DNA of 64,000 nucleotides from Escherichia phage phiWec181, in sequence record LC739534.1; one strand, written 5' to 3'. Within the stretch, counting starts at the first letter, position 1; each line of letters opens with the position of its first letter. Shown one piece after another: positions 41,319-53,673 of this stretch. A program made the position numbers and the translations under genes. Below the pieces are notes generated by a model, which ran no database searches, was not told where the DNA came from, and worked only from the letters and a program-made list of their open reading frames with translations.

Positions 41319-41334
41319 TGGGGCGTTGCCGCCC
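41319..41334 (-). promoter_or_regulatory. intergenic GC hairpin without adjacent promoter
   Basis: GGGGCG-GCAA-CGCCCC between CDS 41344..41643 and 41063..41299; no -35/-10 next to it. Confidence 0.3.
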
Positions 41335-41343
41335 CTTTGTTGA

Positions 41344-41643: not shown

Positions 41644-41660
41644 TTTGTTTTCCTCATTAT

Positions 41661-41718
41661 CGGCGGCACCATTGCCGCCCTACGTGGTAAATATTATCAC
41701 ACTGGCGATCTGTGTCAA
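41661..41718 (-). promoter_or_regulatory. PeSL-like cassette, hairpin class I
   Basis: TTGACA, 16 nt, TAATAT, 10 nt, GGCGGCA-ATGG-TGCCGCC hairpin, then CDS 41344..41643. Confidence 0.5.
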
Positions 41719-41724
41719 TACTTT

Positions 41725-42111
41725 TTATTCAATATAAATCAAATTATCTTCACCAATGTAAGCCGACACGTCCGGCATGAATTTAGCGGCATTTGTTAGG
41801 CGGTTGGCTGTGTTAGTAGTGTATATTTCAGGGCGATCCCAAAATCCTACGCCGTGACCGTTACGGGTAAAATGTAAATCATTCCCGATCTGGTTGGCTG
41901 TAGCGCCGTCGCTCATTGCTTCCGCAATAGCGGCAACGTTAGCATTACAAAATGATGTAACATCGTCCGCGATACGGTCCAGGGCTTGAGAAGAAAAATC
42001 ATAATCGTCTAAGTTATCAATAAAATCACCTTCGTGATCCCTGGCTGATTCAGCAAAAATAAAAACGTCTTTATAACCGTTGATGATTTCGTTAATGATT
42101 TCTGTTTTCAT
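41725..42111 (-). CDS. hypothetical acidic protein (128 aa)
   Basis: SD AAAGAGAGA upstream. Confidence 0.55.
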   Translation of the reverse strand: MKTEIINEIINGYKDVFIFAESARDHEGDFIDNLDDYDFSSQALDRIADDVTSFCNANVAAIAEAMSDGATANQIGNDLHFTRNGHGVGFWDRPEIYTTNTANRLTNAAKFMPDVSAYIGEDNLIYIE

Positions 42112-42125
42112 GTTGTGTCTCTCTT

Positions 42126-42230
42126 TTAACCGATACCGTGGGAAGATAGGATCATATTAGCCATAGTTGCAACCACTCCAACCGATAACGCCAGGCCAAC
42201 TACTGCAACCGTGAAAATTTTCTCTAACAT
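42126..42230 (-). CDS. small hydrophobic peptide (34 aa)
   Basis: MLEKIFTVAVVGLALSVGVVATMANMILSSHGIG; SD GAGGGTAG upstream; C-terminus resembles 40606..40725 peptide; not in ORF track. Confidence 0.4.
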   Translation of the reverse strand: MLEKIFTVAVVGLALSVGVVATMANMILSSHGIG

Positions 42231-42248
42231 GATGCTACCCTCATTAAT

Positions 42249-42310
42249 GGGCGTTGCCTTATTGCCCCGCCCTACGTAATACAGTTTACCCGATTTATAA
42301 TTGTTGTCAA
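42249..42310 (-). promoter_or_regulatory. PeSL-like cassette, hairpin class V
   Basis: TTGACA, 16 nt, TAAACT, 10 nt, GC hairpin GGGCG...CGCCC, then small ORF 42126..42230. Confidence 0.45.
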
Positions 42311-42311
42311 A

Positions 42312-42593
42312 TTATTTTTTCAAGCTTGACCACTCAAAACACGGCGGGATCTCGTTAAAACTTGCACCCTGTAAAGCACATAATTTTTTAGCAATAGCCG
42401 CCGTAACCTGGCGTTGTACGCGCGGATCTGCTACTGATTGGAGAAAGTAGGCGGCTTTATATGTGATCATGCTTTCGCCTGTTTCCTTGTTAACGTGGTG
42501 CACTATTTTAGCCTTATCATCTTTAACCAGGGTGTAACCGGATTCGATGGCCTTGATTGCAACGTCCAATGATATTTTCATGATTTGTCTCAT
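42312..42593 (-). CDS. hypothetical protein (93 aa)
   Basis: ATG only 7 nt after hairpin and without SD; possible short-leader translation. Confidence 0.45.
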   Translation of the reverse strand: MRQIMKISLDVAIKAIESGYTLVKDDKAKIVHHVNKETGESMITYKAAYFLQSVADPRVQRQVTAAIAKKLCALQGASFNEIPPCFEWSSLKK

Positions 42594-42599
42594 CTGATA

Positions 42600-42658
42600 A
42601 GCGGGGCGGTTGTCGCCCCTGTAAAATGAATACTACGCGCTTATTTTGCTGTTGTCAA
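42600..42658 (-). promoter_or_regulatory. PeSL-like cassette, hairpin class III
   Basis: TTGACA, 17 nt, TAGTAT, ~10 nt, GGGGCG-ACAAC-CGCCCC hairpin, then CDS 42312..42593. Confidence 0.5.
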
Positions 42659-42823
42659 CAACGGGCGAAAAAACTTTTTGATCTGGTTTGCTGTTAGGCG
42701 CATATCTGCTTTGAGCGTTGCCAGGCGATAAGCTTTACCCTTGATCAGTTTATGGTGTCCGGTGCCGTTGCCGATGATAACATCGATTTCACACAATACG
42801 CGGGAAGCATCAATCTTTTTCAT
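42641..42823 (-). CDS. hypothetical basic protein (60 aa)
   Basis: SD GAAAGGTAA upstream. Confidence 0.45.
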   Translation of the reverse strand: MKKIDASRVLCEIDVIIGNGTGHHKLIKGKAYRLATLKADMRLTANQIKKFFRPLLTTAK

Positions 42824-42843
42824 GTTGTTACCTTTCGTGTTAT

Positions 42844-42899
42844 GGGGCGCTTGTCGCCCCCTGTCTGATAAAGATAATCCCTTTCGGGATATCTGTCAA
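42844..42899 (-). promoter_or_regulatory. PeSL-like cassette, hairpin class III, with second hairpin in promoter spacer
   Basis: TTGACA, 17 nt (contains ATCCC-GAAA-GGGAT), TATCTT, 10 nt, GGGGCG-ACAAG-CGCCCC. Confidence 0.5.
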
Positions 42900-42905
42900 C
42901 TATTT

Positions 42906-43091
42906 TTATTGTACGGTGTGGCGATCGCTGTATTCAGCGTAAAACTCACATCCATCGTCACGGCTATCAAGTTTAACGATGTACCCGCTATTCCAACGTT
43001 CAACTGATACTACCGGATAATACTTCCCGTTAAGGATATTTTTCACCAGGTCGCCTTTTACCAGTTCTTTCGTTTTCTTGTAAGTAGTCAT
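42906..43091 (-). CDS. hypothetical protein (61 aa)
   Basis: ATG 43091 preceded by AGAAGAGAAAAC; ORF-track start 43172 would lie inside the promoter cassette. Confidence 0.45.
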   Translation of the reverse strand: MTTYKKTKELVKGDLVKNILNGKYYPVVSVERWNSGYIVKLDSRDDGCEFYAEYSDRHTVQ

Positions 43092-43110
43092 GATGTTTTC
43101 TCTTCTGTTT

Positions 43111-43172
43111 TGCGGTGGACCGTTCCGCCGCCCTATGTAATAAACTATACGCGCCAACGTTCCAGGCGTCAA
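43111..43172 (-). promoter_or_regulatory. PeSL-like cassette, hairpin class II
   Basis: TTGACG, 17 nt, TATAGT, 10 nt, GGCGGCGGA-ACGG-TCCACCGC hairpin. Confidence 0.5.
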
Positions 43173-43289
43173 GTATATTTTTAAAATTATTTTCTACAAC
43201 GTAAAACGCCCCAGCATAAGCCAGGGCGCACTAATTAAATCAGGTAGGGGATTGCATTGCCTTACACCTTTTAGGCTGTTAGCTGGCGA

Positions 43290-43517
43290 TTAGTAGCGTA
43301 GGATGTTTACACGCTCATCCCGCCCCAAGATATCTTCATATCTGTTTCCCCTTCCTTCGTACCAGATGATCACGGTGTCAGGATCAAACGGATTGTTTTC
43401 GATAGCCGTTACCTTACAAAAATCATAAAACGGGAACGGATAAACGCCAACCTGTAAACGCGCCCGATCTCCTGGGCGAATGGTAGCGGCACGATCTGCA
43501 ATGACATTGTTATACAT
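43290..43517 (-). CDS. hypothetical protein (75 aa)
   Basis: SD TAAGGGG upstream of ATG 43517. Confidence 0.45.
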   Translation of the reverse strand: MYNNVIADRAATIRPGDRARLQVGVYPFPFYDFCKVTAIENNPFDPDTVIIWYEGRGNRYEDILGRDERVNILRY

Positions 43518-43527
43518 AGTAAGCCCC

Positions 43528-43806
43528 TTAACGATTATAAACATTGTGGATGGCATCGAAAGCAAGCCGACCATAAGCCGCCAAATCGGGATTGATCCAG
43601 GCGTTATCTAACATCGTTTCAAGGACTGTGGAATCATCGTATAAAGCATCATAAAAATCTGCACGGATGATCGTTTCAATATCGTCCGGTGTTAGTTCCC
43701 TGTTAAGGTTGCAAACCGCTAAAACGTCCACCAATAATTTCCAATCTTGCAAATTAGTGGTTAATACTGTTTTCATTTCTTCGGTTGTGAGTTTAACGAT
43801 GGTCAT
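43528..43806 (-). CDS. hypothetical acidic protein (92 aa)
   Basis: SD AGAGAGATAA upstream. Confidence 0.5.
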   Translation of the reverse strand: MTIVKLTTEEMKTVLTTNLQDWKLLVDVLAVCNLNRELTPDDIETIIRADFYDALYDDSTVLETMLDNAWINPDLAAYGRLAFDAIHNVYNR

Positions 43807-43823
43807 GATTTTATCTCTCTGTT

Positions 43824-43882
43824 AGGCGGGGCGCTTGTCGCCCCTATGTGATACACTTTATCAGATTGGTTGGGCTTGTCAA
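43824..43882 (-). promoter_or_regulatory. PeSL-like cassette, hairpin class III
   Basis: TTGACA, 17 nt, TAnnnT -10, GGGGCG-ACAAG-CGCCCC hairpin, then CDS 43528..43806. Confidence 0.5.
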
Positions 43883-43883
43883 A

Positions 43884-43994
43884 CTATTTTTTCTTTTTCT
43901 TTGCTTCCAACCGTCTAAGGTTACGGCTTGACTTATTGCGCAAGGCGCTTAGATCGTCGTACCCTTTCCATGCTTGCATATCTTTCGGATTCAT
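43884..43994 (-). CDS. small basic protein (36 aa)
   Basis: MNPKDMQAWKGYDDL...KKKKK; SD TAAGGGGGG upstream of ATG 43994. Confidence 0.4.
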   Translation of the reverse strand: MNPKDMQAWKGYDDLSALRNKSSRNLRRLEAKKKKK

Positions 43995-44004
43995 GTTAGC
44001 CCCC

Positions 44005-44211
44005 TTAACGCGTTGCGTAAATAATATGACTTGCCGGACTACTGCAAACCAGGTTAAGCGGCTTGCTGTTATATTGCATCTTGTCGGCTTGTTTGCTTGC
44101 TGCGATGATTCCATCTATTACACGTTGCAAACTAACCTTTACCGCCTTTTTTGCCAACCGTTGACGCTTTACCAGTGCCTGGATCTTTTTCTTGTCTGCG
44201 TTGCTTAACAT
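44005..44211 (-). CDS. hypothetical basic protein (68 aa)
   Basis: SD TAAGGGCG upstream. Confidence 0.45.
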   Translation of the reverse strand: MLSNADKKKIQALVKRQRLAKKAVKVSLQRVIDGIIAASKQADKMQYNSKPLNLVCSSPASHIIYATR

Positions 44212-44220
44212 GGTGCGCCC

Positions 44221-44400
44221 TTACTTGTTAGCCGGATTGTATGCCAGGATCGCGCCGCTTGCTTTCACGCTTTCATCTTCATAGTTGCGCAGATCGTTTT
44301 CTGTAAGATTGAGCGCGATCACTTCCTCGATCTCAATGCCAGTGGCAAGGGCGATCTCTTTAATGATGTTTGATGATCTGATAACGTTTACTGTTTTCAT
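44221..44400 (-). CDS. hypothetical protein (59 aa)
   Basis: SD AAGGTG upstream of ATG 44400. Confidence 0.45.
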   Translation of the reverse strand: MKTVNVIRSSNIIKEIALATGIEIEEVIALNLTENDLRNYEDESVKASGAILAYNPANK

Positions 44401-44410
44401 GGTGTGCACC

Positions 44411-44530
44411 TTATAAGATGATTGATAAGATAGTGATAACGAAAGCGATAACACCAACGGCGATCGTAGTCTTACGCCCTTCGGATACTGCCGGATTCTC
44501 TACCGTGTATTCTACTGTGTATTTGTTCAT
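44411..44530 (-). CDS. small hydrophobic peptide (39 aa)
   Basis: MNKYTVEYTVENPAVSEGRKTTIAVGVIAFVITILSIIL; SD AGAGGATAA upstream; not in ORF track. Confidence 0.4.
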   Translation of the reverse strand: MNKYTVEYTVENPAVSEGRKTTIAVGVIAFVITILSIIL

Positions 44531-44552
44531 TGTGTTATCCTCTCGCTTGCTT

Positions 44553-44610
44553 TGAGAACTATTCCCGCCGCCCTATGAATTAAATATACACTATCCCAAA
44601 ATGATTGCAA
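44553..44610 (-). promoter_or_regulatory. PeSL-like cassette, hairpin class IV (degenerate stem)
   Basis: TTGCAA -35, TAnnnT -10, GGCGGCGGGAATAGTTCTC region with weaker pairing. Confidence 0.4.
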
Positions 44611-44629
44611 GCCTTTTTCTAAATTATTT

Positions 44630-44914
44630 TTATGCAGTAAACAGACCATCATTTACAACGGCGGCGATGATCTCCCGTGCCATTGATTCAGGGAACGGGG
44701 CGCTATAGTCCTGGCTTGTCTCGTCGCTGTCTGTTACCCAATGATAAGCCAACGAGTAAAAGCCTTTACTCCCTGTTTTCAGTGAAACGATGATCACTCG
44801 GTTAAGTCCATCGGTAAACGTTGCCGTTAATGTGTTATCATCTTGCGTCATGTTGGACAAGTAAGCGGCATCATTAACCAGGGAAAACAGTAGCACCGTG
44901 TTAGCTTTAACCAT
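44630..44914 (-). CDS. hypothetical protein (94 aa)
   Basis: SD GAGGAT upstream of ATG 44914, immediately after hairpin. Confidence 0.5.
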   Translation of the reverse strand: MVKANTVLLFSLVNDAAYLSNMTQDDNTLTATFTDGLNRVIIVSLKTGSKGFYSLAYHWVTDSDETSQDYSAPFPESMAREIIAAVVNDGLFTA

Positions 44915-44932
44915 GATTTGATCCTCAAACGG

Positions 44933-44990
44933 GCGCGGCACCATTGCCGCCCTACGTAATACACTTTACCTTATTTCTTCCAAAAAGCAA
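44933..44990 (-). promoter_or_regulatory. PeSL-like cassette, hairpin class I
   Basis: TTGCTT, ~17 nt, TAAAGT, 10 nt, GGCGGCA-ATGG-TGCCGCGC hairpin; -35 overlaps 3' end of upstream CDS. Confidence 0.45.
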
Positions 44991-45171
44991 GTTTATTTGC
45001 AATTGGTGACAAATAACGTTTACCCGCGTAAAACAGTACAGCGACACTAACCACGGCGGCGATCTCATGCATAGCCGACGGGAAACGAGTATCATAATAA
45101 GATCCAATAATAGCAATAGCGGCAACGGCTGCAACGTCGATAATGATTTTTTCTTGTTTTGCGGTGATCAT
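44971..45171 (-). CDS. small membrane protein (66 aa)
   Basis: Two hydrophobic segments; SD AAAAGGTAAAT upstream. Confidence 0.5.
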   Translation of the reverse strand: MITAKQEKIIIDVAAVAAIAIIGSYYDTRFPSAMHEIAAVVSVAVLFYAGKRYLSPIANKLAFWKK

Positions 45172-45192
45172 AATATTTACCTTTTTGTATGG

Positions 45193-45253
45193 TGGGGGGA
45201 ACTATTCCCCGCCCTGATGTAATACAGTTTAACAGATCCGGTTATAGTGTCAA
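45193..45253 (-). promoter_or_regulatory. PeSL-like cassette, hairpin class IV
   Basis: TTGACA, TAnnnT -10, GGGGAA-TAG-TTCCCC hairpin, then CDS 44971..45171. Confidence 0.5.
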
Positions 45254-45259
45254 CCACTT

Positions 45260-45445
45260 TTAAAGATATTTTATACTGATAACATTTTCCGGTTTAACCT
45301 GGTTGTGATAAGCATCAATGTAAATCAAACCATCGTTAGAAACGCCCAGGATCACGCCTTGCGCAATAAAACCGTATCGGTCGCGGTAACGTGCCGCCAC
45401 TTTGTTCGCTGCGTTGTAGGCTGTTTTAATCTCGTTTAAGGTCAT
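45260..45445 (-). CDS. hypothetical protein (61 aa)
   Basis: SD GAGAGGATAA upstream. Confidence 0.5.
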   Translation of the reverse strand: MTLNEIKTAYNAANKVAARYRDRYGFIAQGVILGVSNDGLIYIDAYHNQVKPENVISIKYL

Positions 45446-45469
45446 GTGCTGTTATCCTCTCGTTAGATA

Positions 45470-45493
45470 TAAGAAAGGGCGCTATTTGCGCCC
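45470..45493 (-). terminator. rho-independent terminator
   Basis: GGGCGC-AAATA-GCGCCC hairpin followed by TTTCTTAT on minus strand. Confidence 0.5.
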
Positions 45494-45503
45494 TTGATTT
45501 GTT

Positions 45504-45650
45504 TTAGTCTTCCAGGTCCATCCATGCACGTTTCTCGGTGCGGTCGCGCTTAGTTTTGTTGCGCTTGTCGCCCTTGCGGATCACTTCTTCATTCCACGCT
45601 GCGCGTGTTTTAGAAGATTGGATTTTTTCGGCGCGATTAGATGTATTCAT
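45504..45650 (-). CDS. small basic protein (48 aa)
   Basis: MNTSNRAEKIQSSKTRAAWNEEVIRKGDKRNKTKRDR...; SD AAAGAGGAAA upstream; not in ORF track. Confidence 0.4.
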   Translation of the reverse strand: MNTSNRAEKIQSSKTRAAWNEEVIRKGDKRNKTKRDRTEKRAWMDLED

Positions 45651-45672
45651 GATGTTTCCTCTTTTTAGTTGT

Positions 45673-45731
45673 GAGCGGCACCATTGCCGCCCTACGTGTT
45701 TTAATTTACTTTATTGTTTGATGCCTGTCAA
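45673..45731 (-). promoter_or_regulatory. PeSL-like cassette, hairpin class I
   Basis: TTGACA, TAnnnT -10, GGCGGCA-ATGG-TGCCGCT hairpin, then small ORF 45504..45650. Confidence 0.5.
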
Positions 45732-45748
45732 CTACTTTTAAAAACTTT

Positions 45749-46102
45749 TTATTCGTGGGAAAGTGTAAGGATCACACCTGCAATATATAACCAATAGTTT
45801 TCCCTTTCTTTCTGGATCTTGTTTTCGCTACTACGCTCGTTAATGTACCCCCAGGATGTTAACAACCGATCTACTTCCCAATACTCGAAAGCTATATTAA
45901 TATTTGACGGTAAACCTTGTAACCATGATGCTATTGCTCTGATAATGTTATGATCGTAACGTTTTTGATTATCGGTGTACCAATATTCAGATTTAAAACA
46001 GCGCATCAATTCCGCGATCTTCTCTTTCTCTTCTGTGATGCCATACTCGCTATAATCAATTGAGGCCAGAATATAAAGTTTAATTGCATTTTGTGCTTTC
46101 AT
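45749..46102 (-). CDS. hypothetical protein (117 aa)
   Basis: SD AGAAGAGAGA upstream. Confidence 0.5.
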   Translation of the reverse strand: MKAQNAIKLYILASIDYSEYGITEEKEKIAELMRCFKSEYWYTDNQKRYDHNIIRAIASWLQGLPSNINIAFEYWEVDRLLTSWGYINERSSENKIQKERENYWLYIAGVILTLSHE

Positions 46103-46121
46103 GGTGTCTCTCTTCTGTTGT

Positions 46122-46179
46122 GAGCGGCACCATTGCCGCCCTATGTGTTACATCTTACCGGATTTTTAAAACTTGTCAA
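46122..46179 (-). promoter_or_regulatory. PeSL-like cassette, hairpin class I
   Basis: TTGACA, TAAGAT -10, GGCGGCA-ATGG-TGCCGCT hairpin, then CDS 45749..46102. Confidence 0.5.
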
Positions 46180-46401
46180 TCATTTTTCTACTATCATTTG
46201 ATAACCTGTTTCAAGGTTAGTAAACACCGTGATCCCGTCCTGGCGTTCACTCATAAGCAAGCAAGGCGCTAACATCCTTCCTACTTCCTTGCACTCGTTA
46301 TAAGCGGCGGTAATGTCTCCCGCTGCTTTGTCTTCTGTGGTGAATGTATCGTTTACGTAAACTTTACCAGCGACAACGGCGACAATAGCAAAAGTGATCA
46401 T
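46180..46401 (-). CDS. hypothetical protein (73 aa) with hydrophobic N-terminus
   Basis: SD AAAGAGGAAAAC upstream of ATG 46401; ORF-track start 46473 lacks SD. Confidence 0.45.
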   Translation of the reverse strand: MITFAIVAVVAGKVYVNDTFTTEDKAAGDITAAYNECKEVGRMLAPCLLMSERQDGITVFTNLETGYQMIVEK

Positions 46402-46479
46402 GATGTTTTCCTCTTTGTGTTTTTCGTTTTGATTAGTTGATAATACAGCAATTCGCAGATTAGTCTTTAGCAATTCATG

Positions 46480-46698
46480 CTATTTACTCACAACAGTATC
46501 GAAAACAAATTTTTCTTTGTTGTCGAAGCTAACATATCCGATTCGACCACGCAAGCCGCCAGTAGTGCCGTATTCGTAACCATCAAGGCCTTTAACCTTC
46601 CAATCCGTACCCATTAAAACCGCATTATATTTCTGACCAACTACAAACGCGCCACCAGTTGATTCAATGCAAACAACTTTAATTTTACGGATTGCCAT
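46480..46698 (-). CDS. hypothetical protein (72 aa)
   Basis: SD AAAGAGAGAAAG upstream. Confidence 0.5.
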   Translation of the reverse strand: MAIRKIKVVCIESTGGAFVVGQKYNAVLMGTDWKVKGLDGYEYGTTGGLRGRIGYVSFDNKEKFVFDTVVSK

Positions 46699-46766
46699 TT
46701 TCTTTCTCTCTTTGTGGTGATTGGTTTCTCTTCTCTATAGCGCCCATTATAAGGCGCTATAACGAA

Positions 46767-46934
46767 AAGTCAACGATTATTTTTTACGGCTTAAGGTGCC
46801 CAAGTTATCAGCGTGACGCAGACCAGGGAAGATCCAAGCGCCGGATTCATCTTTTACAGGTGCCTTAACACTTGCGCCCAGGTTGGCGGCGTTAACTTTA
46901 CGTGCTACGTTGCGAGCGGCTTCACGGGTAGTAA
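46767..46934 (-). CDS. small protein (~55 aa)
   Basis: MITFTTREAARNVARKVNAANLGA...; SD AGAGGAAAAC upstream; not in ORF track. Confidence 0.4.
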
Positions 46935-46957
46935 AAGTAATCATGATGTTTTCCTCT

Positions 46958-47020
46958 TCTCTTTGTTAGGCGGTGGACCATTCCGCCGCCTTGATGTAAT
47001 ACAGTTTACTCTATTTTTAT
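46958..47020 (-). promoter_or_regulatory. PeSL-like cassette, hairpin class II
   Basis: TTGCAA, 16 nt, TAAACT, ~11 nt, GGCGGCGGA-ATGG-TCCACCGCC hairpin. Confidence 0.5.
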
Positions 47021-47165
47021 TTCTTTGCAACTACTTTTATATTTTCTTTCTTTGCCTCTTCCACCTGGTCCGCCCACTGCTTACCCCACGTTTGAGCGTT
47101 ATAGTGATATTGACAAAGAGCAACACCACGTTTTAAACCAGCGATAGACTTTTTACCACATTGAC
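47007..47165 (-). CDS. small Cys-containing protein (52 aa)
   Basis: MKTCQCGKKSIAGLKRGVALCQYHY...; SD TAAGGGA upstream; overlaps -35 of downstream cassette; not in ORF track. Confidence 0.4.
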
Positions 47166-47186
47166 AAGTTTTCATTTTGTGATCCC

Positions 47187-47399
47187 TTAGTTGATGATAG
47201 TCAGTGTAAAATTATAATCACCATTCTTATATAACACCATATTACCGAAGGTGCCGACTCGACGCATATCCATACGGATACCTATAACATCTTTAACGTC
47301 TTTAATGTTTTTAACGCCCGTGATATCTTTATTAAAATATTCCTCGTCTGAAAATAAAACTTGACTTGCATTTTTTAACAGTGTGCGGATATTAGCCAT
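47187..47399 (-). CDS. hypothetical protein (70 aa)
   Basis: Purine-rich AGAAGAGAGA upstream. Confidence 0.5.
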   Translation of the reverse strand: MANIRTLLKNASQVLFSDEEYFNKDITGVKNIKDVKDVIGIRMDMRRVGTFGNMVLYKNGDYNFTLTIIN

Positions 47400-47422
47400 C
47401 GTGATAATCTCTCTTCTGTTGT

Positions 47423-47480
47423 GAGCGGCACCATTGCCGCCCTACGTAATACAGTTTACTCTTTTTCTTTCCGGTGTCAA
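47423..47480 (-). promoter_or_regulatory. PeSL-like cassette, hairpin class I
   Basis: TTGACA, 16 nt, TAAACT, 10 nt, GGCGGCA-ATGG-TGCCGCT hairpin, then CDS 47187..47399. Confidence 0.5.
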
Positions 47481-47488
47481 CAATCTTT

Positions 47489-47716
47489 TTAGATTAATTC
47501 GTCCAGGCATAACAGGCGATCAACGTTGAGATCGGTCAGGCTGATGGTTGGCACCTGATAAGATTCGATGTACTCGACGCTTGCATATTCCCCAAAGTTA
47601 GCAATAGCCCACTTATTCAAGATCTCACATACATCATTAATCTTTTTGTTTGTTACAACTGCAATAACCTGGGAAGTGCCAACGGTGCCGGATACGCGAA
47701 CAATATTGATAGCCAT
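47489..47716 (-). CDS. hypothetical protein (75 aa)
   Basis: SD AGAAGAGAGAAAA upstream. Confidence 0.5.
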   Translation of the reverse strand: MAINIVRVSGTVGTSQVIAVVTNKKINDVCEILNKWAIANFGEYASVEYIESYQVPTISLTDLNVDRLLCLDELI

Positions 47717-47735
47717 GATTTTTCTCTCTTCTGTT

Positions 47736-47794
47736 AGGCGGGGCGCTTGTCGCCCCTATGTGATACATCTTACACTAATTTAAAACTTTGTCAA
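47736..47794 (-). promoter_or_regulatory. PeSL-like cassette, hairpin class III
   Basis: TTGACA, TAAGAT -10, GGGGCG-ACAAG-CGCCCC hairpin, then CDS 47489..47716. Confidence 0.5.
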
Positions 47795-47795
47795 A

Positions 47796-47876
47796 TTATT
47801 TTCTATTTCTTCCGTAATAGCCCAATTTATGATCTAAGCTAAAACGTTTTGTGAGATAGGTCGAACGATGTTTCAT
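47796..47876 (-). CDS. tiny basic peptide (26 aa), speculative
   Basis: MKHRSTYLTKRFSLDHKLGYYGRNRK; SD AAAGGAGAC upstream; may be spurious. Confidence 0.25.
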   Translation of the reverse strand: MKHRSTYLTKRFSLDHKLGYYGRNRK

Positions 47877-47889
47877 TTTTATGTCTCCT

Positions 47890-48129
47890 TTACATTCCAA
47901 CCATAGCGGCGCGGATCGCGGTAGTGCTATACTTGAAACCGTCTGGAGTTTTATCTTGTCCAGTCTGTTCCAGAAAGAGCATCATATCACGCGCCGCATC
48001 GTTACGGTTAGAATTATAACTAATAAATTCTTTCGCGGTGCGGTATAATGATTCATCGTTATTAATCCAAAGGCTTACATTCCAATGAGTTTTGTTTTTG
48101 TGACCTAAGAACATTTTTGATTTAGCCAT
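47890..48129 (-). CDS. hypothetical protein (79 aa)
   Basis: SD AAAAAGAGA upstream. Confidence 0.5.
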   Translation of the reverse strand: MAKSKMFLGHKNKTHWNVSLWINNDESLYRTAKEFISYNSNRNDAARDMMLFLEQTGQDKTPDGFKYSTTAIRAAMVGM

Positions 48130-48150
48130 GATGTTAATCTCTTTTTCAGT

Positions 48151-48212
48151 GAGGCGGGAACTATTCCCGCGCCCTATGTAATACAGTTTACTCTTTTTAT
48201 TCGTGCTGTCAA
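48151..48212 (-). promoter_or_regulatory. PeSL-like cassette, hairpin class IV
   Basis: TTGACA, TAAACT -10, GCGGGAA-TAG-TTCCCGC hairpin, then CDS 47890..48129. Confidence 0.5.
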
Positions 48213-48218
48213 TGCTTT

Positions 48219-48572
48219 TTATAAATCTTTTTTACGTTTTACATCGCTTGCATGACTGTATACAGCGATCCCATTATCACGACAAAAACGGGTAAGGTAT
48301 GATCCGCGTGAAAACTCTTTCCCTTCCAGGTCAACAACCTTGCTAAATTCTTCCAGGGCAACGGTATCAAAATGATCACCATAACCATATTGAAACGGCA
48401 CGTTAACAACTTCAATCAATTTACCGCCGATCTCAACGTCCACGCTTAAAGAAAAATATGTGTTACCGTAGGACTGTTGAAACCAGCGACGGGCGCTAAT
48501 GTGAACGGCTTCAATCTCACCAATTTTAAATTGAGTGTTACCCAGGATCGCAACGTTGATATTTTTAGCCAT
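48219..48572 (-). CDS. hypothetical protein (117 aa)
   Basis: SD AAAGAGAGAAAA upstream. Confidence 0.5.
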   Translation of the reverse strand: MAKNINVAILGNTQFKIGEIEAVHISARRWFQQSYGNTYFSLSVDVEIGGKLIEVVNVPFQYGYGDHFDTVALEEFSKVVDLEGKEFSRGSYLTRFCRDNGIAVYSHASDVKRKKDL

Positions 48573-48597
48573 GATTTTTTCTCTCTTTTTGGTTAGT

Positions 48598-48649
48598 GGG
48601 AAGTGTTCCCGATAAAAGTTATTATGCTTATACTATCGTTTTTTGTCAA
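48598..48649 (-). promoter_or_regulatory. PeSL-like cassette, hairpin class IV
   Basis: TTGACA, 17 nt, CATAAT, 10 nt, GGGAAC-ACT-TCCC hairpin, then CDS 48219..48572. Confidence 0.45.
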
Positions 48650-48668
48650 TAGTATAAGACTAAAACTT

Positions 48669-48848
48669 TTAACGATAATCATCGTAGGCTTTATTAACCT
48701 GGCGAATATAACATTCGAAAGCGAGATCAATAGAATCATATTCCCGCACATAATCCCCGTAAGAAACTACATACACACCTTTTTGATCCTCAAACGTCAT
48801 GATGATAGAATCCAGGCCGATGATTTCAGTTTTAGCGATGATAGTCAT
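48669..48848 (-). CDS. hypothetical protein (59 aa)
   Basis: MTIIAKTEIIGLDSIIMTFEDQKGVYVVSYGDYV...; SD AAAAAGGT upstream; not in ORF track. Confidence 0.45.
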   Translation of the reverse strand: MTIIAKTEIIGLDSIIMTFEDQKGVYVVSYGDYVREYDSIDLAFECYIRQVNKAYDDYR

Positions 48849-48867
48849 AATAATAACCTTTTTATTG

Positions 48868-48926
48868 TTGGCGGCACCATTGCCGCCCTACGTGATAAAC
48901 TATACCAGAATTTTAAACAGTGTCAA
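48868..48926 (-). promoter_or_regulatory. PeSL-like cassette, hairpin class I
   Basis: TTGACA, TAnnnT -10, GGCGGCA-ATGG-TGCCGCC hairpin, then CDS 48669..48848. Confidence 0.5.
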
Positions 48927-48936
48927 ACGTTTTTTC

Positions 48937-49182
48937 TTAGTTTGCGAAATATGGCGCGGCGGCTGATGCCGTTAATCTCCAAGTGATTTGGCTATCGATC
49001 AAGTATTCTTCATTCTTGATCCGCACGGTATCAATCGAGAAGTTACTGAAAGGCTTGCTCTTGATTTTACGAACAACCGTTACACGACGGTTATTTTTCA
49101 TCTCTTTTAACTGAATCCAGGCGTAACCTTTTTCATTGACAAATATTTCATTGTGATTGGTGATAGATGATAAGTGTTTCAT
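48937..49182 (-). CDS. hypothetical protein (81 aa)
   Basis: SD AGAAGAGAGAAAA upstream. Confidence 0.5.
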   Translation of the reverse strand: MKHLSSITNHNEIFVNEKGYAWIQLKEMKNNRRVTVVRKIKSKPFSNFSIDTVRIKNEEYLIDSQITWRLTASAAAPYFAN

Positions 49183-49203
49183 GATTTTTCTCTCTTCTGT
49201 TTT

Positions 49204-49265
49204 GAGCGGTGGACCATTCCGCCGCCCTATGTGTTACATCTTACTACTTTTTTAAACATTGTCAA
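49204..49265 (-). promoter_or_regulatory. PeSL-like cassette, hairpin class II
   Basis: TTGACA, TAAGAT -10, GGCGGCGGA-ATGG-TCCACCGC hairpin, then CDS 48937..49182. Confidence 0.5.
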
Positions 49266-49273
49266 GGATATTT

Positions 49274-49555
49274 TTAACTATATGATCCACATCGTTCGCA
49301 GTAGTGATCATCGTCGTCATCTGCTACCTGGCTGATAAAATGATCTACCTTTGCTTTCAAATTATTATAATTGCTTTCTACTTCCTGTAGTCGTCGTTGG
49401 TAGTATTCCAGGGCTTGCACATAGGCCATTTGTTCGGTTTTAGCTTGCATAGCTAAATTCATGCCACGCGTTTCATCGTATAACCAATAACCATCATTAC
49501 ATTCACTAATAGATAGTGTAGGGCTTAGTTTTTCGTGACGGATAACCTTGCTCAT
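49274..49555 (-). CDS. hypothetical protein (93 aa), coiled-coil-like with C-terminal CxxC
   Basis: SD TAAGGGG upstream; ends ...HYCERCGSYS. Confidence 0.5.
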   Translation of the reverse strand: MSKVIRHEKLSPTLSISECNDGYWLYDETRGMNLAMQAKTEQMAYVQALEYYQRRLQEVESNYNNLKAKVDHFISQVADDDDDHYCERCGSYS

Positions 49556-49565
49556 AGTGTGCCCC

Positions 49566-49676
49566 TTACTTCAAAATGATTGTTGTGATAACTGCTACGG
49601 TGATCCAGAATGGAACAACTAAGATAATAGCGTTAATCGTTCCAACTGTCAAACTATTTTCTTTCTTGATCATCAT
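49566..49676 (-). CDS. small hydrophobic peptide (36 aa)
   Basis: MMIKKENSLTVGTINAIILVVPFWITVAVITTIILK; SD AAGGAAAAC upstream; in frame with track ORF 49566..49799, whose N-terminal extension is rejected. Confidence 0.4.
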   Translation of the reverse strand: MMIKKENSLTVGTINAIILVVPFWITVAVITTIILK

Positions 49677-49683
49677 GTTTTCC

Positions 49684-49767
49684 TTACAGTGTCCAAAGAA
49701 TGATTTCAAGTGCAGCACGGAAACCAGGAATAAAATTGATTGCAAAAAACAGGGAAGTAGTAAACAT
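49684..49767 (-). CDS. small hydrophobic peptide (27 aa)
   Basis: MFTTSLFFAINFIPGFRAALEIILWTL; SD GAAAGGATAG upstream; not in ORF track. Confidence 0.35.
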   Translation of the reverse strand: MFTTSLFFAINFIPGFRAALEIILWTL

Positions 49768-49786
49768 TTTTCTATCCTTTCAGTTG

Positions 49787-49845
49787 TGAGCGGCACCATT
49801 GCCGCCTGATGAGTTAACTATAAGGGATCACGTTTTACCTGTCAA
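49787..49845 (-). promoter_or_regulatory. PeSL-like cassette, hairpin class I
   Basis: TTGACA, TAnnnT -10, GGCGGCA-ATGG-TGCCGCT hairpin, then the two small hydrophobic peptide ORFs. Confidence 0.5.
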
Positions 49846-50399
49846 CCTAAATCATCAAAATAAAGATAATTTTTTTCGGCTTCTTTCTTCTCTTCCTGTG
49901 ATGCCTCAAAGACTGGGAGAAAGTGATCAAAGGCGACGCACTCAACCGCTTGATCGTCTTCCTCTTCCTGGTCTTCCTCCTGGGCTATGGCTGCAATTTT
50001 GGCTAATTTCCTTTCAGCCTGGATCAGCTTACCATCTAAAACGCTTTTAGCGGTGCTGTACGCCGTCCAAGTGATGCGCTTACTTTCCAGCGCGGCATCA
50101 AGCGCCGCTATCTTGCTGGGGTATTCATCCAGGACACGAAAAGCCGGATCTACCTTGTACAGCGGATTATCTTTCGCGCCGTCGCTATCATCTGCGGCGC
50201 TTGCAATGTCAGCGTTACCATTCGCCAGCCAACCAGGGCGATCGCTGCGTGTTTTGGTATTCCCATGACTACGCGCCGATCTGTTGCCTACTTGCTCGCC
50301 ACTATAGCCAGGAGCATGATCGATCATGTCGTCCGGTATAATGCGCGGATCATTAACGTCATGTTTTACCCAGGACTGGATCACATATTCGCGCCCCAT
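49842..50399 (-). CDS. hypothetical protein (185 aa), acidic C-terminus
   Basis: SD AAAAGGGGTG upstream. Confidence 0.55.
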   Translation of the reverse strand: MGREYVIQSWVKHDVNDPRIIPDDMIDHAPGYSGEQVGNRSARSHGNTKTRSDRPGWLANGNADIASAADDSDGAKDNPLYKVDPAFRVLDEYPSKIAALDAALESKRITWTAYSTAKSVLDGKLIQAERKLAKIAAIAQEEDQEEEDDQAVECVAFDHFLPVFEASQEEKKEAEKNYLYFDDLG

Positions 50400-50659
50400 T
50401 ATACACCCCTTTTAACAATCATTTCACACACAAGAAATAAGCTGGCGGAATCACGGCAAGGATAGAAAGATGTACGATAATCTCTCACCCCTGCTTTTAT
50501 GATCTCCGTGGTTTTACCTGATAGCACATTGTAAATAGTGTAACTTGTCGGACTGTTTTTATATACCTTGCCAGGGTAGATCATAACATAACGAGCAAGG
50601 TTATAAAATTCCTCGTTACGAAAGGCTATGATCTTCCCGCATACCTTAAGAAAGTGCAC
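50399..50659 (-). CDS. hypothetical protein (86 aa), GTG start
   Basis: GTG preceded by TAAGGGGGG at 6 nt; start overlaps downstream gene stop. Confidence 0.45.
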   Translation of the reverse strand: MHFLKVCGKIIAFRNEEFYNLARYVMIYPGKVYKNSPTSYTIYNVLSGKTTEIIKAGVRDYRTSFYPCRDSASLFLVCEMIVKRGV

Positions 50660-50669
50660 GTTAGCCCCC

Positions 50670-50942
50670 TTACAGCAAAAAGTTTACTTGTCTTGCTGTT
50701 AATGTAGTATCAACCATTTTCGGGCTTTTATAATTGACAAAACGCGCGGTTTTTTCAATAGCGAAGCCGAGATAATCTTGTTTGTTGAAATTACATTCTT
50801 TCTTAAATGTTTCCCGTGCAATGGCGATCGCTGCGTCCAGGGATAAACGCCCGTCAATATTGATATTTGCGAAAGATCCGCCACCGCTCATAGGTTTACC
50901 AGTGGTGCCCGTTACGATCATTGTTGCGCTATATGATGCCAT
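50670..50942 (-). CDS. hypothetical protein (90 aa)
   Basis: ATG 50942 preceded by AAGAGAGATTATC; ORF-track start 50978 would lie inside the hairpin cassette. Confidence 0.5.
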   Translation of the reverse strand: MASYSATMIVTGTTGKPMSGGGSFANINIDGRLSLDAAIAIARETFKKECNFNKQDYLGFAIEKTARFVNYKSPKMVDTTLTARQVNFLL

Positions 50943-50964
50943 GATGATAATCTCTCTTAGTTGT

Positions 50965-51026
50965 GAGCGGTGGACCATTCCGCCGCTCTACGTGATACAT
51001 CTTATCAGGTTGTTGCCTGTTGTCAA
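50965..51026 (-). promoter_or_regulatory. PeSL-like cassette, hairpin class II
   Basis: TTGACA, TAAGAT -10, AGCGGCGGA-ATGG-TCCACCGCT hairpin, then CDS 50670..50942. Confidence 0.5.
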
Positions 51027-51032
51027 TACTTT

Positions 51033-51230
51033 TTATTCAAGCCCTACGATATGTAAGACACGGCGATTAGCAATAGCGTGCTGGTCTTCTGTTATAACGC
51101 CCATTTCTACCAGTGAATCAAGAAAGGAAAGCACCGTGATATATTCGTCATCGGGTACACTCATTTCATTAGTACCGTTTACCACTACGTTGATTTGTCC
51201 TGCTTTCGCTACAATGTGCAATGTTGCCAT
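51033..51230 (-). CDS. hypothetical protein (65 aa)
   Basis: SD CTGGAG upstream; long GC-rich leader. Confidence 0.5.
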   Translation of the reverse strand: MATLHIVAKAGQINVVVNGTNEMSVPDDEYITVLSFLDSLVEMGVITEDQHAIANRRVLHIVGLE

Positions 51231-51365
51231 GATCTTAACTCCAGGTGATGAATGATGTTTTTTGTTGGTTGACGGTGGATTATGGAGATCCTCACCTTTG
51301 CCCGTCCTGCATTGCGCCCTCCTGTTGTTTATTGTCGTTGTGCCTCGCCCCCCTCGACAAGATTA

Positions 51366-51394
51366 ATACTACGCTACCAGGTGCGGAACGTCAA
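51366..51394 (-). promoter_or_regulatory. sigma70-type promoter with long GC-rich leader
   Basis: Minus strand TTGACG, 17-nt spacer, TAGTAT; ~130-nt leader before CDS 51033..51230. Confidence 0.45.
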
Positions 51395-51504
51395 CGACTT
51401 TTTCAATCTTTTTTATTTTCTTTTTGCTTGCTATATATAAAGGAAAGGGCTATCATCTTTCTACCGCGCCAACCAGGGCGCACAACAGAAGAAAGGGCGA
51501 CACC

Positions 51505-51771
51505 ATGACAACTACTACATTACACCTTATGCACTCGTTAGGCTGGCAAGGCGGCACGGTCCACCAGGTAGCAAGCGCAACGGGCTTAAAGGTTGAAACA
51601 GTTCTCAACCTGGGCGATCATAAAGTGGAAGAGATAGACCATTTTGATCCGTTCGCTGATGGTTATCTCTGGGCTTGCAGTGGCGGCGGGGAAAGCAAGA
51701 TACCGCCAGCCGCGCGGGGCGATATGCATTTTTGGTTAGGTGTTCTCTCCTGGCAAGAAAACAAAAAATAA
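51505..51771 (+). CDS. hypothetical protein (88 aa) in GC-rich island, opposite strand to neighbours
   Basis: ATG 51505 preceded by GAAGAAAGGG; codon composition visibly more GC-rich than surrounding genes. Confidence 0.35.
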   Translation: MTTTTLHLMHSLGWQGGTVHQVASATGLKVETVLNLGDHKVEEIDHFDPFADGYLWACSGGGESKIPPAARGDMHFWLGVLSWQENKK

Positions 51772-51773
51772 TC

Positions 51774-51802
51774 TTGACAAGCCCAGGGATCGGGCTTATA
51801 CT
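51774..51802 (+). promoter_or_regulatory. near-consensus sigma70 promoter on + strand with no downstream SD-led ORF
   Basis: TTGACA, exactly 17-nt spacer, TATACT; downstream ~150 nt GC-rich with no convincing ORF. Confidence 0.5.
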
Positions 51803-52025
51803 GTTTTACATACAGAAGAGGAAGCGCCACCCCACGGCGTAAAGGCGGGGCTAACATACCAGGGGCACTGGTTGGAAGGTCGATCGCCGGGAGGCTGGGC
51901 GCTATATATTTGTAAAGAAATGTAAAGATAAAATAATCGCTTGCTTTCCTGGCTGGATCTGTTATTCTTATTACATGGCGAGGGGACACGGGAGCGCGAG
52001 ACAATCACCGGACCTGCCCGTCATT

Positions 52026-52140
52026 CTGCAAATGAGAAAAATTCTCATTTGCAAATAAGACTCATTCGCATTTAATAATTGAATGAGAATCATTCTCATT
52101 CTCATTCGTATTTCGATTTTAAGTGAGAATAATTCTCATT
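52026..52140. promoter_or_regulatory. three palindromic operator-like sites (AATGAGAAT-n-ATTCTCATT), Fur-box-like
   Basis: 27-bp perfect palindrome TGCAAATGAGAA-AAA-TTCTCATTTGCA at 52026..52052; further copies at 52082..52100 and 52121..52140. Confidence 0.45.
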
Positions 52141-52152
52141 TCGGTAATTTTC

Positions 52153-52338
52153 ACGTAAACTTTAGAATTTGCTTTTCAACTTTCACTTTTGTAAAAGCAA
52201 AAAAACTTTAAATACCTGGTGCGCGCGACTTTTTAAAAAATTTTTCTCGGTTTTTTGCTTTGAAATCTGGCCCACCAATTTGAGATAGTGTACGTAAACT
52301 TTAGAATTTGGTTTTGGATTCTCACTTTTGTAAACTCG
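52153..52338. repeat. pair of ~46-bp direct repeats in non-coding DNA
   Basis: ACGTAAACTTTAGAATTTG(C/G)TTTT...TTCTCACTTTTGTAAA at 52153..52198 and 52292..52338; TTGAGATAGT also repeated. Confidence 0.45.
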
Positions 52339-52483
52339 TAAAAAGTTTAAATAATTGTAGGGATTTTGAGATAGTTTGCTTGTAAGGTTTGAGATAATCC
52401 TTCCCGAAGATGTTACGCAGCCTACAGCCTACCTGAATGCTCGTCTAACGAGATTAACTCTAAAAGATGAGTGTTGGTGTAGC

Positions 52484-52521
52484 TAAAGAGAAAAGGCTCT
52501 CTACGGTGTTGTAGGAGCCTT
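52484..52521 (-). terminator. rho-independent terminator after NADAR gene
   Basis: AAGGCTC-N15-GAGCCTT hairpin followed by TTTTCTCTTT on minus strand. Confidence 0.45.
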
Positions 52522-52591
52522 ATTTCTGTGGCACAAAGTTGACGTATTCTTTTTAAAAACGAATTTTTTCAAAATATCACGAATATCGCCT

Positions 52592-53119
52592 TTATGGTAT
52601 TTTGGCTGGGAACAGGATTTTAATCAGATTGTTGTGGTATTGTCCTAAAAGATTCTGCCCTTTCCAGTTGGCAGGATTAAGCACCCCTGGTTCGTACATA
52701 CCCATTCCAATTCCGTAAACCTTATCATAAGGACTCGCCTCAACGAACGTTTTGAATTGGTACAGTCGCAAGTCAGAATAAAGATCAGGGTTCTGTGTAT
52801 ACTTCAAGCATAAGCCTCGCATTACGATACGCTCTCGGTACTCTTCCCACATGTCATTATTAAAACCAGACACCGCTCGACCCATGCGCTTGTAGTATGC
52901 CTGTCCCTTCTCGTCGTCACGCTTCATTGAGTGATCAAGGATAGCTGCTGCGATTACCTGATCCTTGAACAGCAAAGCCTTACGCCACATCATGTATTGC
53001 TCTACACAACAGAAAGTTTCATTGTACCCTGGTTCCGTCTCTGTGAATGGTGCAATGTACCAATTGCTAAACACATCTTTATGTGAAAAGAAGAATACAT
53101 ATTCATTAGTTATTCGCAT
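52592..53119 (-). CDS. NADAR-domain protein (YbiA-like, NAD/ADP-ribose processing family)
   Basis: N-terminal FFFSHKDVFSNWY and overall ~175 aa layout resemble NADAR/DUF1768 (YbiA). Confidence 0.65.
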   Translation of the reverse strand: MRITNEYVFFFSHKDVFSNWYIAPFTETEPGYNETFCCVEQYMMWRKALLFKDQVIAAAILDHSMKRDDEKGQAYYKRMGRAVSGFNNDMWEEYRERIVMRGLCLKYTQNPDLYSDLRLYQFKTFVEASPYDKVYGIGMGMYEPGVLNPANWKGQNLLGQYHNNLIKILFPAKIP

Positions 53120-53294
53120 TTTTCATGCCTCTTAAGACTTCAGCTTGCCCGTCTTGAAAAGCTTTCATCAGAACTATCTTAAGATTGACTTCCAAGCGTT
53201 CTTCATCCTCTTTATAACAATCCAACACTGCCTTAAGTTCATCATAGTGGTTCAGAATAGGTTTAAAGATTTCATGATCTGCTAAACGTGCCAT
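53106..53294 (-). CDS. hypothetical protein (62 aa)
   Basis: SD AAAGGAGAAAC upstream of ATG 53294. Confidence 0.45.
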   Translation of the reverse strand: MARLADHEIFKPILNHYDELKAVLDCYKEDEERLEVNLKIVLMKAFQDGQAEVLRGMKNANN

Positions 53295-53307
53295 AGTTTC
53301 TCCTTTG

Positions 53308-53673
53308 TTAGTCCATCCACCAGTAGCCATAAACTGCGTCTGCGTCGATGAGTTTGTGTTTGTTGTTCCGCATGTAGTCTAAGATAAGTAGACGTTTATT
53401 GTATCTGGAGAGATTATGACCCTCTTTTCCGCCATAGTCAAAATATTTTGCAAGACTTTTACACTCAAACAAAATCAGTTCGGGAGTTTCTTCACATTGG
53501 TCTGTCTGGTACACTTGACGGATGATCATGTATACGTCATCGTCTTCCGCTAAGTGCTCTACTGGTCCACACCCAGCAGGAATAAATTCATAGTCCCATC
53601 GAATCAGATGTTTCTCTACTGCTTCAAAGAAATCCATTTTTTCGCTACGCATGATCTGAACATCAATTAACAT
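53308..53673 (-). CDS. hypothetical protein (121 aa)
   Basis: SD CAGGAGGAAAA upstream. Confidence 0.5.
   Translation of the reverse strand: MLIDVQIMRSEKMDFFEAVEKHLIRWDYEFIPAGCGPVEHLAEDDDVYMIIRQVYQTDQCEETPELILFECKSLAKYFDYGGKEGHNLSRYNKRLLILDYMRNNKHKLIDADAVYGYWWMD

Follow-up and report, generated by a model that had tools for sequence, protein, structure and literature searches.

Fur-box-like palindrome arrays in the two gene-free gaps that border the early-gene block of Escherichia phage phiWec181

On either side of an array of small genes in Escherichia phage phiWec181 are palindromes that resemble the binding site of the host regulator Fur. The DNA analysed here is a 64,000-nucleotide stretch of this phage (record LC739534.1), referred to as the window, and coordinates are those of the window unless another record is named. 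Which protein do these palindromes serve, and what would it do in DNA that carries no genes? The evidence tips slightly towards their being binding sites of host Fe2+-Fur, set in two conserved arrays in the non-coding DNA bordering the early-gene block.

The phage is an rV5/phAPEC8-like virulent myovirus of the genus Phapecoctavirus, subfamily Stephanstirmvirinae. Over the stretch compared, window 51000–53500 is 100% identical to phiWec179 of the same genus and subfamily (window 51000 being position 93325 of the phiWec179 record), and genome-wide scans were run on the 154-kilobase (kb) phiWec179 genome. The genomes examined were, in all, four Stephanstirmvirinae, five Vequintavirinae (SSE121, CR8, KNP2, POP17 and rV5, with the hosts Salmonella, Cronobacter, Klebsiella, Pectobacterium and E. 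coli) and three T5-type genomes. Identities given for the right-hand module refer to an alignment of eight phages from two subfamilies, and those for the left-hand gap to four phages.

Palindromes in the two gaps and their match to Fur sites

Three of the four sites first reported lie in the right gap (51772–52591), 820 base pairs (bp) without genes, and the fourth in a second gene-free stretch, the left gap (37188–38625). Between the two gaps runs the array of small minus-strand early genes; the motif does stand at both flanks of this array, as the initial annotation had it. Between them, the gaps contain seven palindromes that fit AAATGA[G/T]AAT-N-ATT[C/A]TCATTT, named here R1 to R4 and L-A to L-C. 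They are described without strand, except for L-A, which is written as its minus-strand sequence.

At the upstream end of the right-hand array is box R1 (52027–52053), which abuts a conserved leader. It is the perfect 27-bp palindrome TGCAAATGAGAAAAATTCTCATTTGCA, correctly recognised at the outset but placed one base off, at 52026–52052. Its 7-1-7 core is TGAGAAAAATTCTCA, and it equals the sequence TGCAAATGATAAAAATTATCAT within the footprint of the E. coli fhuF operator, save for a symmetric T-to-G and A-to-C change. Box R2 (52053–52073) is a weak, degenerate copy, AAATAAGACTCATTCGCATTT, with better copies at the aligned position in relatives. Box R3 (52079–52103), with the core TGAGAATCATTCTCA extended by an extra ATTCTC hexamer, includes the related site AATGAGAATCATTCTCATT at 52082–52100, as claimed, and over 31 bp shares 90% identity with the box of the left gap (37439–37469). 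The array ends with box R4 (52119–52143), whose core TGAGAATAATTCTCA is an exact match to the phage 7-1-7 core and which includes the other related site, AAGTGAGAATAATTCTCATT, at its original place (52121–52140).

Strongest of all is box L-A in the left gap (37436–37466; minus-strand sequence GATAATGATAATTATTCTC). The fourth reported copy, AATGAGAATAATTATCATTATCATT, is found here at 37439–37463, within the interval 37438–37470 originally given. Box L-B (37621–37645, TGAGAATGATTATTA) and box L-C (38356–38380, TGATAATGGTTATCA) complete the array, the latter with one mismatch to the Fur 7-1-7 core. Three sites are additional to those of the initial annotation: 37624–37643, the weak 52053–52073, and 38359–38378, which reads TGATAACCATTATCA and has the single core mismatch just mentioned.

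Identity to the Fur consensus GATAATGATAATCATTATC reaches 17 of 19 positions at 37442–37460 (minus strand, in L-A), 15 of 19 at 52085–52103 and 14 of 19 at 52079–52097. Beyond such consensus counting, the likeness to Fur boxes is borne out by a symmetric weight matrix, 19 bp wide, derived from 12 DNase-footprinted Fur regions of E. coli K-12 (footprint coordinates from Table 3 of Chen et al. 2007, PMC2189734). The top sites in the window score 22.7 (37442), 17.2, 16.1 (38362) and 15.7 bits, with several at 11–12 bits (52028, 52034, 52051 and 52125). True E. coli Fur sites left out of training score 7.7–22.2 bits, and the window scores fall within the range of footprinted sites.

Every box except R2 contains matches exactly 6 bp apart. 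These score 12.3 and 11.1 bits in R1 (52028 and 52034), 15.7 and 17.2 bits in R3 (52079 and 52085), 9.2 and 11.0 bits in R4, 8.7 and 12.7 bits in L-B and 11.4 and 16.1 bits in L-C; L-A has three, of 13.7, 22.7 and 12.5 bits at 6-bp steps, and R2 a single match of 11.5 bits at 52051. In real Fur clusters, overlapping sites are likewise 6 bp (or 3 bp) apart (PMC2189734). The operators of E. coli (fhuF, fecI, fepD-entS, entC-fepB and sodA, and iucA on ColV plasmids) thus share with the phage arrays the motif, GATAATGATAATCATTATC or in 7-1-7 form TGATAATnATTATCA, as well as the overlap of sites at 6-bp steps, in clusters spanning 30–120 bp. Within the fecI footprint is TGAGAATGGTTATCA, with the same hybrid half-sites as the phage boxes. 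Summed over 150 bp, the cluster score is 78.8 bits in the right gap and 48.9 bits in the left gap, against 11.8–52.0 bits for E. coli operators, the strongest of those scored being fhuF. The phage arrays are on a par with or above the strongest chromosomal operators scored.

The pattern AATGAGAANNNTTCTCATT, with up to three mismatches allowed, occurs eight times where 0.84 occurrences are expected, and none of 100 shuffles reaches eight. In the phiWec179 genome, four of the five matches of at least 15 bits fall inside the two gaps, which are also the top two clusters genome-wide. The fifth match (16.9 bits) is at phiWec179 22196–22214, in a divergent intergenic region beside a tRNA cluster; the window itself contains no tRNA or tmRNA. 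The offset between the window and record LC739533.1 is 42432 at window position 1 and 42325 at window 51000, a change of 107 bp, so the window is not base-for-base phiWec179 along its whole length. A motif scan of IMG/VR returned at least 120 loci without taxonomy and was uninformative.

Conservation of the boxes and their counterparts in T5-like phages

The phages P3322, 536P1 and alia, the last from another genus, Justusliebigvirus, have the same layout, with two large gaps bordering the small-gene array. Fur-like clusters occur at the same places in all three and often score higher than in the window, reaching 24.1 bits. In the five Vequintavirinae, Fur-like sites lie directly 3' of the same conserved element. 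The boxes form conserved islands in the alignments, with mean pairwise identities of 0.81–0.86 against 0.43–0.61 in neighbouring stretches: R1 is the best-conserved segment of the right-gap module (0.86), L-A has 0.83 against 0.52–0.59 in its flanks, and L-B has 0.81 against 0.59, the aligned site in alia being the one that scores 24.1 bits. L-C is kept in P3322, 536P1 and alia. From 32 collected sites the consensus is again AAATGA[G/T]AAT-N-ATT[C/A]TCATTT.

A BLAST search with the right gap also matches T5-like siphoviruses, through the box segment (window 52023–52115). In bobsandoy and in phage 1-29 the boxes adjoin a consensus LexA box and DnaA boxes. Eight of the nine bobsandoy matches of at least 15 bits are within the first 8.7 kb, the pre-early region, where a 19.9-bit site overlaps the predicted −10 element of a pre-early gene in a classical operator layout. 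In T5 itself (AY587007), copies 1–4 of ‘direct repeat C’ and palindromes E, G and I (9468–9637) are Fur-like boxes of 18–20 bits, and ‘palindrome D’, TACTGTATAAATATACAGTA, is a consensus LexA box (region 9330–9637). The Fur-like and LexA boxes of T5 have the DnaA boxes on one side and the 7.9% nick on the other, near the shear point calculated for first-step transfer. Davison's analysis of the region treats the DnaA boxes and makes no mention of Fur or LexA (bioRxiv 10.1101/866236), and in the literature on the T5 injection-stop repeats we found none that calls them Fur boxes.

The T5 repeats in question, Repeat Region 3 of the injection stop signal (iss), comprising direct repeat C 1–4 and palindromes E, G and I, resemble the phiWec181 arrays in motif and flanks (TTAAATGAGAATCATTATCATTTGCATTT). 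They resemble them also in setting, both being clusters of boxes in large, repeat-filled non-coding DNA that borders the genes expressed first in a virulent enterobacterial phage. Unlike phiWec181, T5 is a siphovirus, unrelated to it, with terminal repeats and two-step DNA entry, and only the T5 region has a LexA box, paired DnaA boxes, a site-specific nick and nine DRD repeats. Neither CTGT-N8-ACAG nor TTATNCACA has a match in either gap of the window.

Could the palindromes act as RNA instead, forming hairpins in the P1 and P2 transcripts described below that serve as terminators, processing sites or protein-binding stem-loops? The boxes are downstream of predicted promoters, a 12-bp stem is possible for R1, and 52080–52108 followed by TATTTCGATT is flagged as terminator-like. 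However, that segment, with three G–C pairs, is the only one to pass even a loose terminator scan; the stems are A+U-rich, most lack a U-run, and Rfam gives no match above noise. The arms moreover do not covary. Across 30 aligned sites 81.3% of arm positions pair, compared with 82.4% when partners are shuffled (440 of 500 shuffles equal or exceed the observed value), and position ±4 (pair 7:15) is unpaired in 20 of the 30. Sequence is kept rather than pairing, and in a T5-like phage the same motif lies over a promoter. Because the arms vary independently, the motif is better explained as a symmetric protein-binding site with one degenerate position than as an RNA or cruciform stem, and hairpins are very improbable. 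Chance palindromes in low-complexity, A+T-rich intergenic DNA are more improbable still, to the point of being negligible. The gaps are A+T-rich (37–39% G+C) and a matrix from so few sites yields scattered 14-bit matches elsewhere in the genome, but in 1,000 dinucleotide shuffles of either gap, which preserve composition, the observed cluster score is never reached. Nor does the first 50 kb of T4, which is more A+T-rich (34% G+C), contain anything comparable (no match of at least 18 bits, best cluster 28 bits), and the sites are kept across two subfamilies while their flanks diverge. Both explanations are effectively ruled out.

The bound protein could in principle be the host's or the phage's own, and the initial annotation had named both host Fur and a phage dimeric regulator. 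Here the evidence favours host Fur, the phage regulator being less supported. A motif common to unrelated phages of the same hosts, and found beside sites for other host proteins, is most simply itself a host-protein site. A tblastn search with E. coli Fur finds no homologue in the phage genome (best E-value 2.2), and none of the seven neighbouring open reading frames (ORFs) examined has a DNA-binding Pfam domain. By genome-wide tblastx, rV5-like and T5-like phages have in common only NrdA/B/D, a phosphatase, a Sir2-like protein, a PhoH-like protein and a hydrolase, with no small regulator among them. In the absence of a phage Fur and of a DNA-binding protein in common with the T5-like phages, host Fur is the most likely binder. 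Operators of a phage-encoded dimeric protein with Fur-resembling specificity, controlling or organising the early region, would account for the consistent G/T preference at ±4, the long AAAT/ATTT flanks and a placement unlike that of typical Fur operators. The phage also has many small ORFs without an assigned role, including an 88-residue one at 51505–51771 whose position is conserved. We nevertheless regard such operators as improbable: the best site matches the host consensus at 17 of 19 positions, the sites score like true Fur sites, the degenerate position is degenerate in E. coli footprints too, and T5 and its relatives have the same motif clustered beside LexA and DnaA boxes while offering no shared candidate regulator.

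Apart from the boxes, the tblastx comparison drew attention to the Sir2-like protein (window ~15680–16470), whose segments match its counterpart in bobsandoy, an unrelated T5-like phage, at 57–74% identity. No other gene in common comes nearly as close, which suggests recent exchange.

Surroundings of the two arrays

Directly adjoining the right-hand boxes is a conserved non-coding module, from which two predicted plus-strand promoters point into the boxes. In the eight-phage alignment its order is A-tract, P1, a G-rich element of about 100 nucleotides, a TGTAAAG tandem, P2, a leader and R1. P1 (51774–51802, plus strand) is a predicted sigma-70 promoter, TTGACA-17-TATACT, behind the A-tract, and matches the consensus at 11 of 12 positions; its hexamers are conserved at 0.79 and 0.62 and its spacer at 0.49. 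The G-rich conserved non-coding element (51809–51905, plus strand) has an identity of 0.75 across Stephanstirmvirinae and Vequintavirinae. The tandem TTGTAAAGAAATGTAAAGA (51910–51928, no strand; 0.79) lies just upstream of P2 (51941–51968, plus strand), predicted as TTGCTT-16-TATTCT with only 7 of 12 consensus positions in this phage; its hexamers are conserved at 0.69 and 0.74 and its spacer at 0.43. Such conservation of hexamers while spacers drift is the signature of real promoters. With the P2 start inferred near 51977, the right-hand boxes would be at about +50 to +165. The leader (51975–52026, plus strand; ...GAGACAATCACCGG..TGCCCGTCATTCT; identity 0.61–0.86) joins R1 without a gap in eight of eight phages. 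The module as a whole (51774–52026) faces away from all neighbouring genes and could give rise to an unknown RNA or a primer transcript of the origin type.

At gathering thresholds Rfam has no match anywhere in the window, and at E-values up to 10 it gives only noise in 51700–52450. A structured RNA between P1 and the boxes was considered and dropped: the P1 element has one covarying pair, the fold of the P2 leader is weak and inconsistent, and the G-rich element has fold z-scores of −1.1 (plus strand) and −0.5 (minus strand). Given so little covariation and such modest z-scores, we do not call this stretch an RNA gene. A third promoter candidate abutting R1, GAGACA-18-CATTCT, was also rejected; it is unlike a promoter because its ‘spacer’ is as conserved as its hexamers.

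Beyond the boxes is a region of iteron-like repeats (52153–52353, no strand), consisting of a 62-bp direct repeat (52153–52214 and 52292–52353) with copies 84% identical. The motif TTTGAGATA occurs three times, at 52279, 52365 and 52388, the last two just past that span. Within the genome the iteron-like motifs are almost confined to the right gap, and they are partly kept in relatives; the local repeats were tried as genome-wide promoter motifs and rejected, as they occur almost solely there. Closing the gap is a hairpin, AGGCTCTCTACGGTGTTGTAGGAGCCT (52494–52520, no strand), with T-rich tails on both strands. It is kept in four Phapecoctavirus genomes and, judged by its sequence, probably terminates the upstream operon on the minus strand.

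The left gap is not a paralogous copy of the right-gap module, the two having only the 31-bp box in common. Between L-A and L-B is a match to the IHF consensus (AATCAACTACTTA at 37547–37559, plus strand; consensus WATCAANNNNTTR), which recurs at the aligned place in P3322 and alia with an identity of 0.71. It is the only conserved match of its kind; the LexA, DnaA, CRP, ArgR and FNR consensus sequences have no matches in the gaps. A minus-strand promoter match overlapping L-C was rejected, as it does not reappear in P3322 or alia, and promoter-like matches in this gap are at chance level. Further left-gap features are palindromes at 37947–37965 and 37982–38002, a hairpin at 38030–38062 (TTAGCTCGCTACG-TGTCCGG-CGTAGCGTGCTAA) with three compensatory pair changes in relatives, and a long CA/AAC-rich tract on the minus strand at ~38150–38300.

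The motifs had first been described as operator motifs at the flanks of the cassette array; that they control the array is not supported, each cassette having its own, box-free promoter. Within the array (38600–51450) are about 24 near-consensus TTGACA-N16/17 minus-strand promoters, one before almost every small gene, and the matrix scan finds no Fur-like match of at least 15 bits there. The right-hand boxes are about 800 bp from the first cassette, which is driven from a predicted promoter at 51394–51366; between them are this promoter and the plus-strand ORF of 88 amino acids. The cassette promoters are in themselves an unusually dense set of strong host-type promoters.

The 88-residue ORF (51505–51771), the sole plus-strand ORF nearby, contains a GWQGGT motif and stops just before P1. 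An annotated plus-strand counterpart is at the same place in P3322 and alia, and the ORF has no Pfam match. On the other side, bordering the right gap, is a minus-strand ORF of 175 amino acids (52592–53119) that encodes a NADAR-domain protein (Pfam E = 1e-33); in related records the gene under its match is labelled ‘GTP cyclohydrolase II’, probably the same ORF mislabelled.

Possible roles of the arrays

If host Fur is the binder, the sequence suggests the following course. In an iron-replete cell, Fur would bind the phage DNA as soon as it arrives. Within the right gap Fur would sit at +50 to +165 downstream of P1 and P2, which fire away from the neighbouring genes, and would act as an iron-dependent block, with transcription through the gap proceeding only at low iron, when Fur is off the DNA. 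Such a block of transcription through the right array in iron-replete cells is the most likely role that we can propose. As the phage replicates, its genome, with some seven palindromes and present in hundreds of copies, should also sequester a large part of the Fur pool, which would de-repress host iron uptake. This would suit a phage with iron-dependent ribonucleotide reductases of its own, and the phiWec179 genome carries nrdA, nrdB and an anaerobic reductase.

Several points weigh against Fur-dependent control. Its support is drawn from sequence, through a matrix of only 12 sites that was seeded with the consensus. The phage sites favour GAGAAT (59%) over the canonical GATAAT, which could mean a different protein; the fecI and fepB footprints hold the same GAGAAT variant. 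P1 and P2 are predictions, P2 being weak by consensus, and blocking transcription at +50 to +165 would be atypical of Fur. No box overlaps a strong promoter or a cassette promoter, and in the left gap promoter-like matches are at chance level, none of them convincing; in E. coli, 303 of 363 Fur clusters overlap a promoter (PMC2189734). In the T5-like phages no evident gene is downstream of the array, which fits an architectural role at least equally well. The titration idea, for its part, presupposes host transcription that stays active long enough.

An architectural role is at the centre of the main rival to regulation by Fur, namely that the gaps are control regions for replication origin, packaging or DNA entry, in which the boxes are part of a nucleoprotein complex and Fur is possibly an architectural component. 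In the right gap, tandem promoters, a G-rich element and the box array do occur together with iteron-like repeats peculiar to that region, and the left gap adds the conserved IHF-consensus match and further conserved palindromes. In T5 the boxes are set between DnaA boxes and the nick, with the calculated shear point nearby, and in rV5 the origin has never been located, the rV5 paper marking a ‘non-coding’ box. Yet no origin-binding protein, nick or terminus has been mapped to the gaps, neither gap of this phage contains a DnaA box, and we know of no role for Fur as an origin or packaging factor. This explanation is in any case compatible with Fur binding and only reassigns its purpose; we consider it possible but distinctly unlikely. 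Equally tentative is a broader idea that embraces both phage groups, in which two unrelated virulent lineages keep landing arrays for host proteins (Fur, joined in the T5-like phages by LexA and DnaA) in the gene-free DNA beside their first-expressed genes. The arrays would then be no ordinary operators and would serve as a host-state checkpoint on entry or early transcription, as a Fur decoy, or as both. As a checkpoint, the T5 arrays would form part of the injection stop signal.

Returning to the arrays as candidate sites of host Fur, their arrangement differs from that of chromosomal ones. Chromosomal Fur sites overlap iron-uptake promoters, whereas the phage arrays are in gene-free DNA without an adjacent iron gene and consist of three to four separate palindromes ~23–51 bp apart, downstream of promoters or away from recognisable ones. 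Phage-borne Fur sites are known from temperate phages. The sitABCD operon of lambdoid coliphages has a Fur site that puts phage DNA under the host iron regulon (PMC6969025), and a Fur site at the phage-borne Shiga toxin 1 promoter is the subject of a Shiga-like-toxin/fur paper, known here through its citation in PMC2189734. Those of temperate phages are single operators at a cargo gene that serves the lysogen; here, there are arrays in a virulent phage and no cargo gene. Virulent cyanophages tie their programme to the nutritional state of the host through PhoB and NtcA sites, but these are at the promoters of auxiliary metabolic genes, respond to phosphate or nitrogen and are not arrays in gene-free DNA. 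Sequestration of Fur by strong boxes at high copy, with de-repression of the host regulon, is the principle of the Fur titration assay (FURTA), a laboratory artefact of plasmids, and to our knowledge no natural Fur decoy has been shown in a phage.

Fur boxes and single Fur operators of temperate phages are thus known, and of arrays in the non-coding DNA of lytic phages we found no description. Our literature search found no link between Fur and Phapecoctavirus, the intergenic regions of lytic phages or the T5 injection stop signal, and no infection transcriptome of an rV5-like phage. Should Fur fail to bind, the sites remain the mark of a control region that is conserved in two phage subfamilies and as yet unexplained. 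If it does bind, replicating phage DNA would be a natural sink for Fur, and the injection-stop repeats of T5 would gain a concrete identity as Fur, LexA and DnaA sites. Infection by a much-used group of coliphages that are therapeutic candidates, the relatives of rV5 and phAPEC8, would then depend on iron, which is limiting in the gut and blood.

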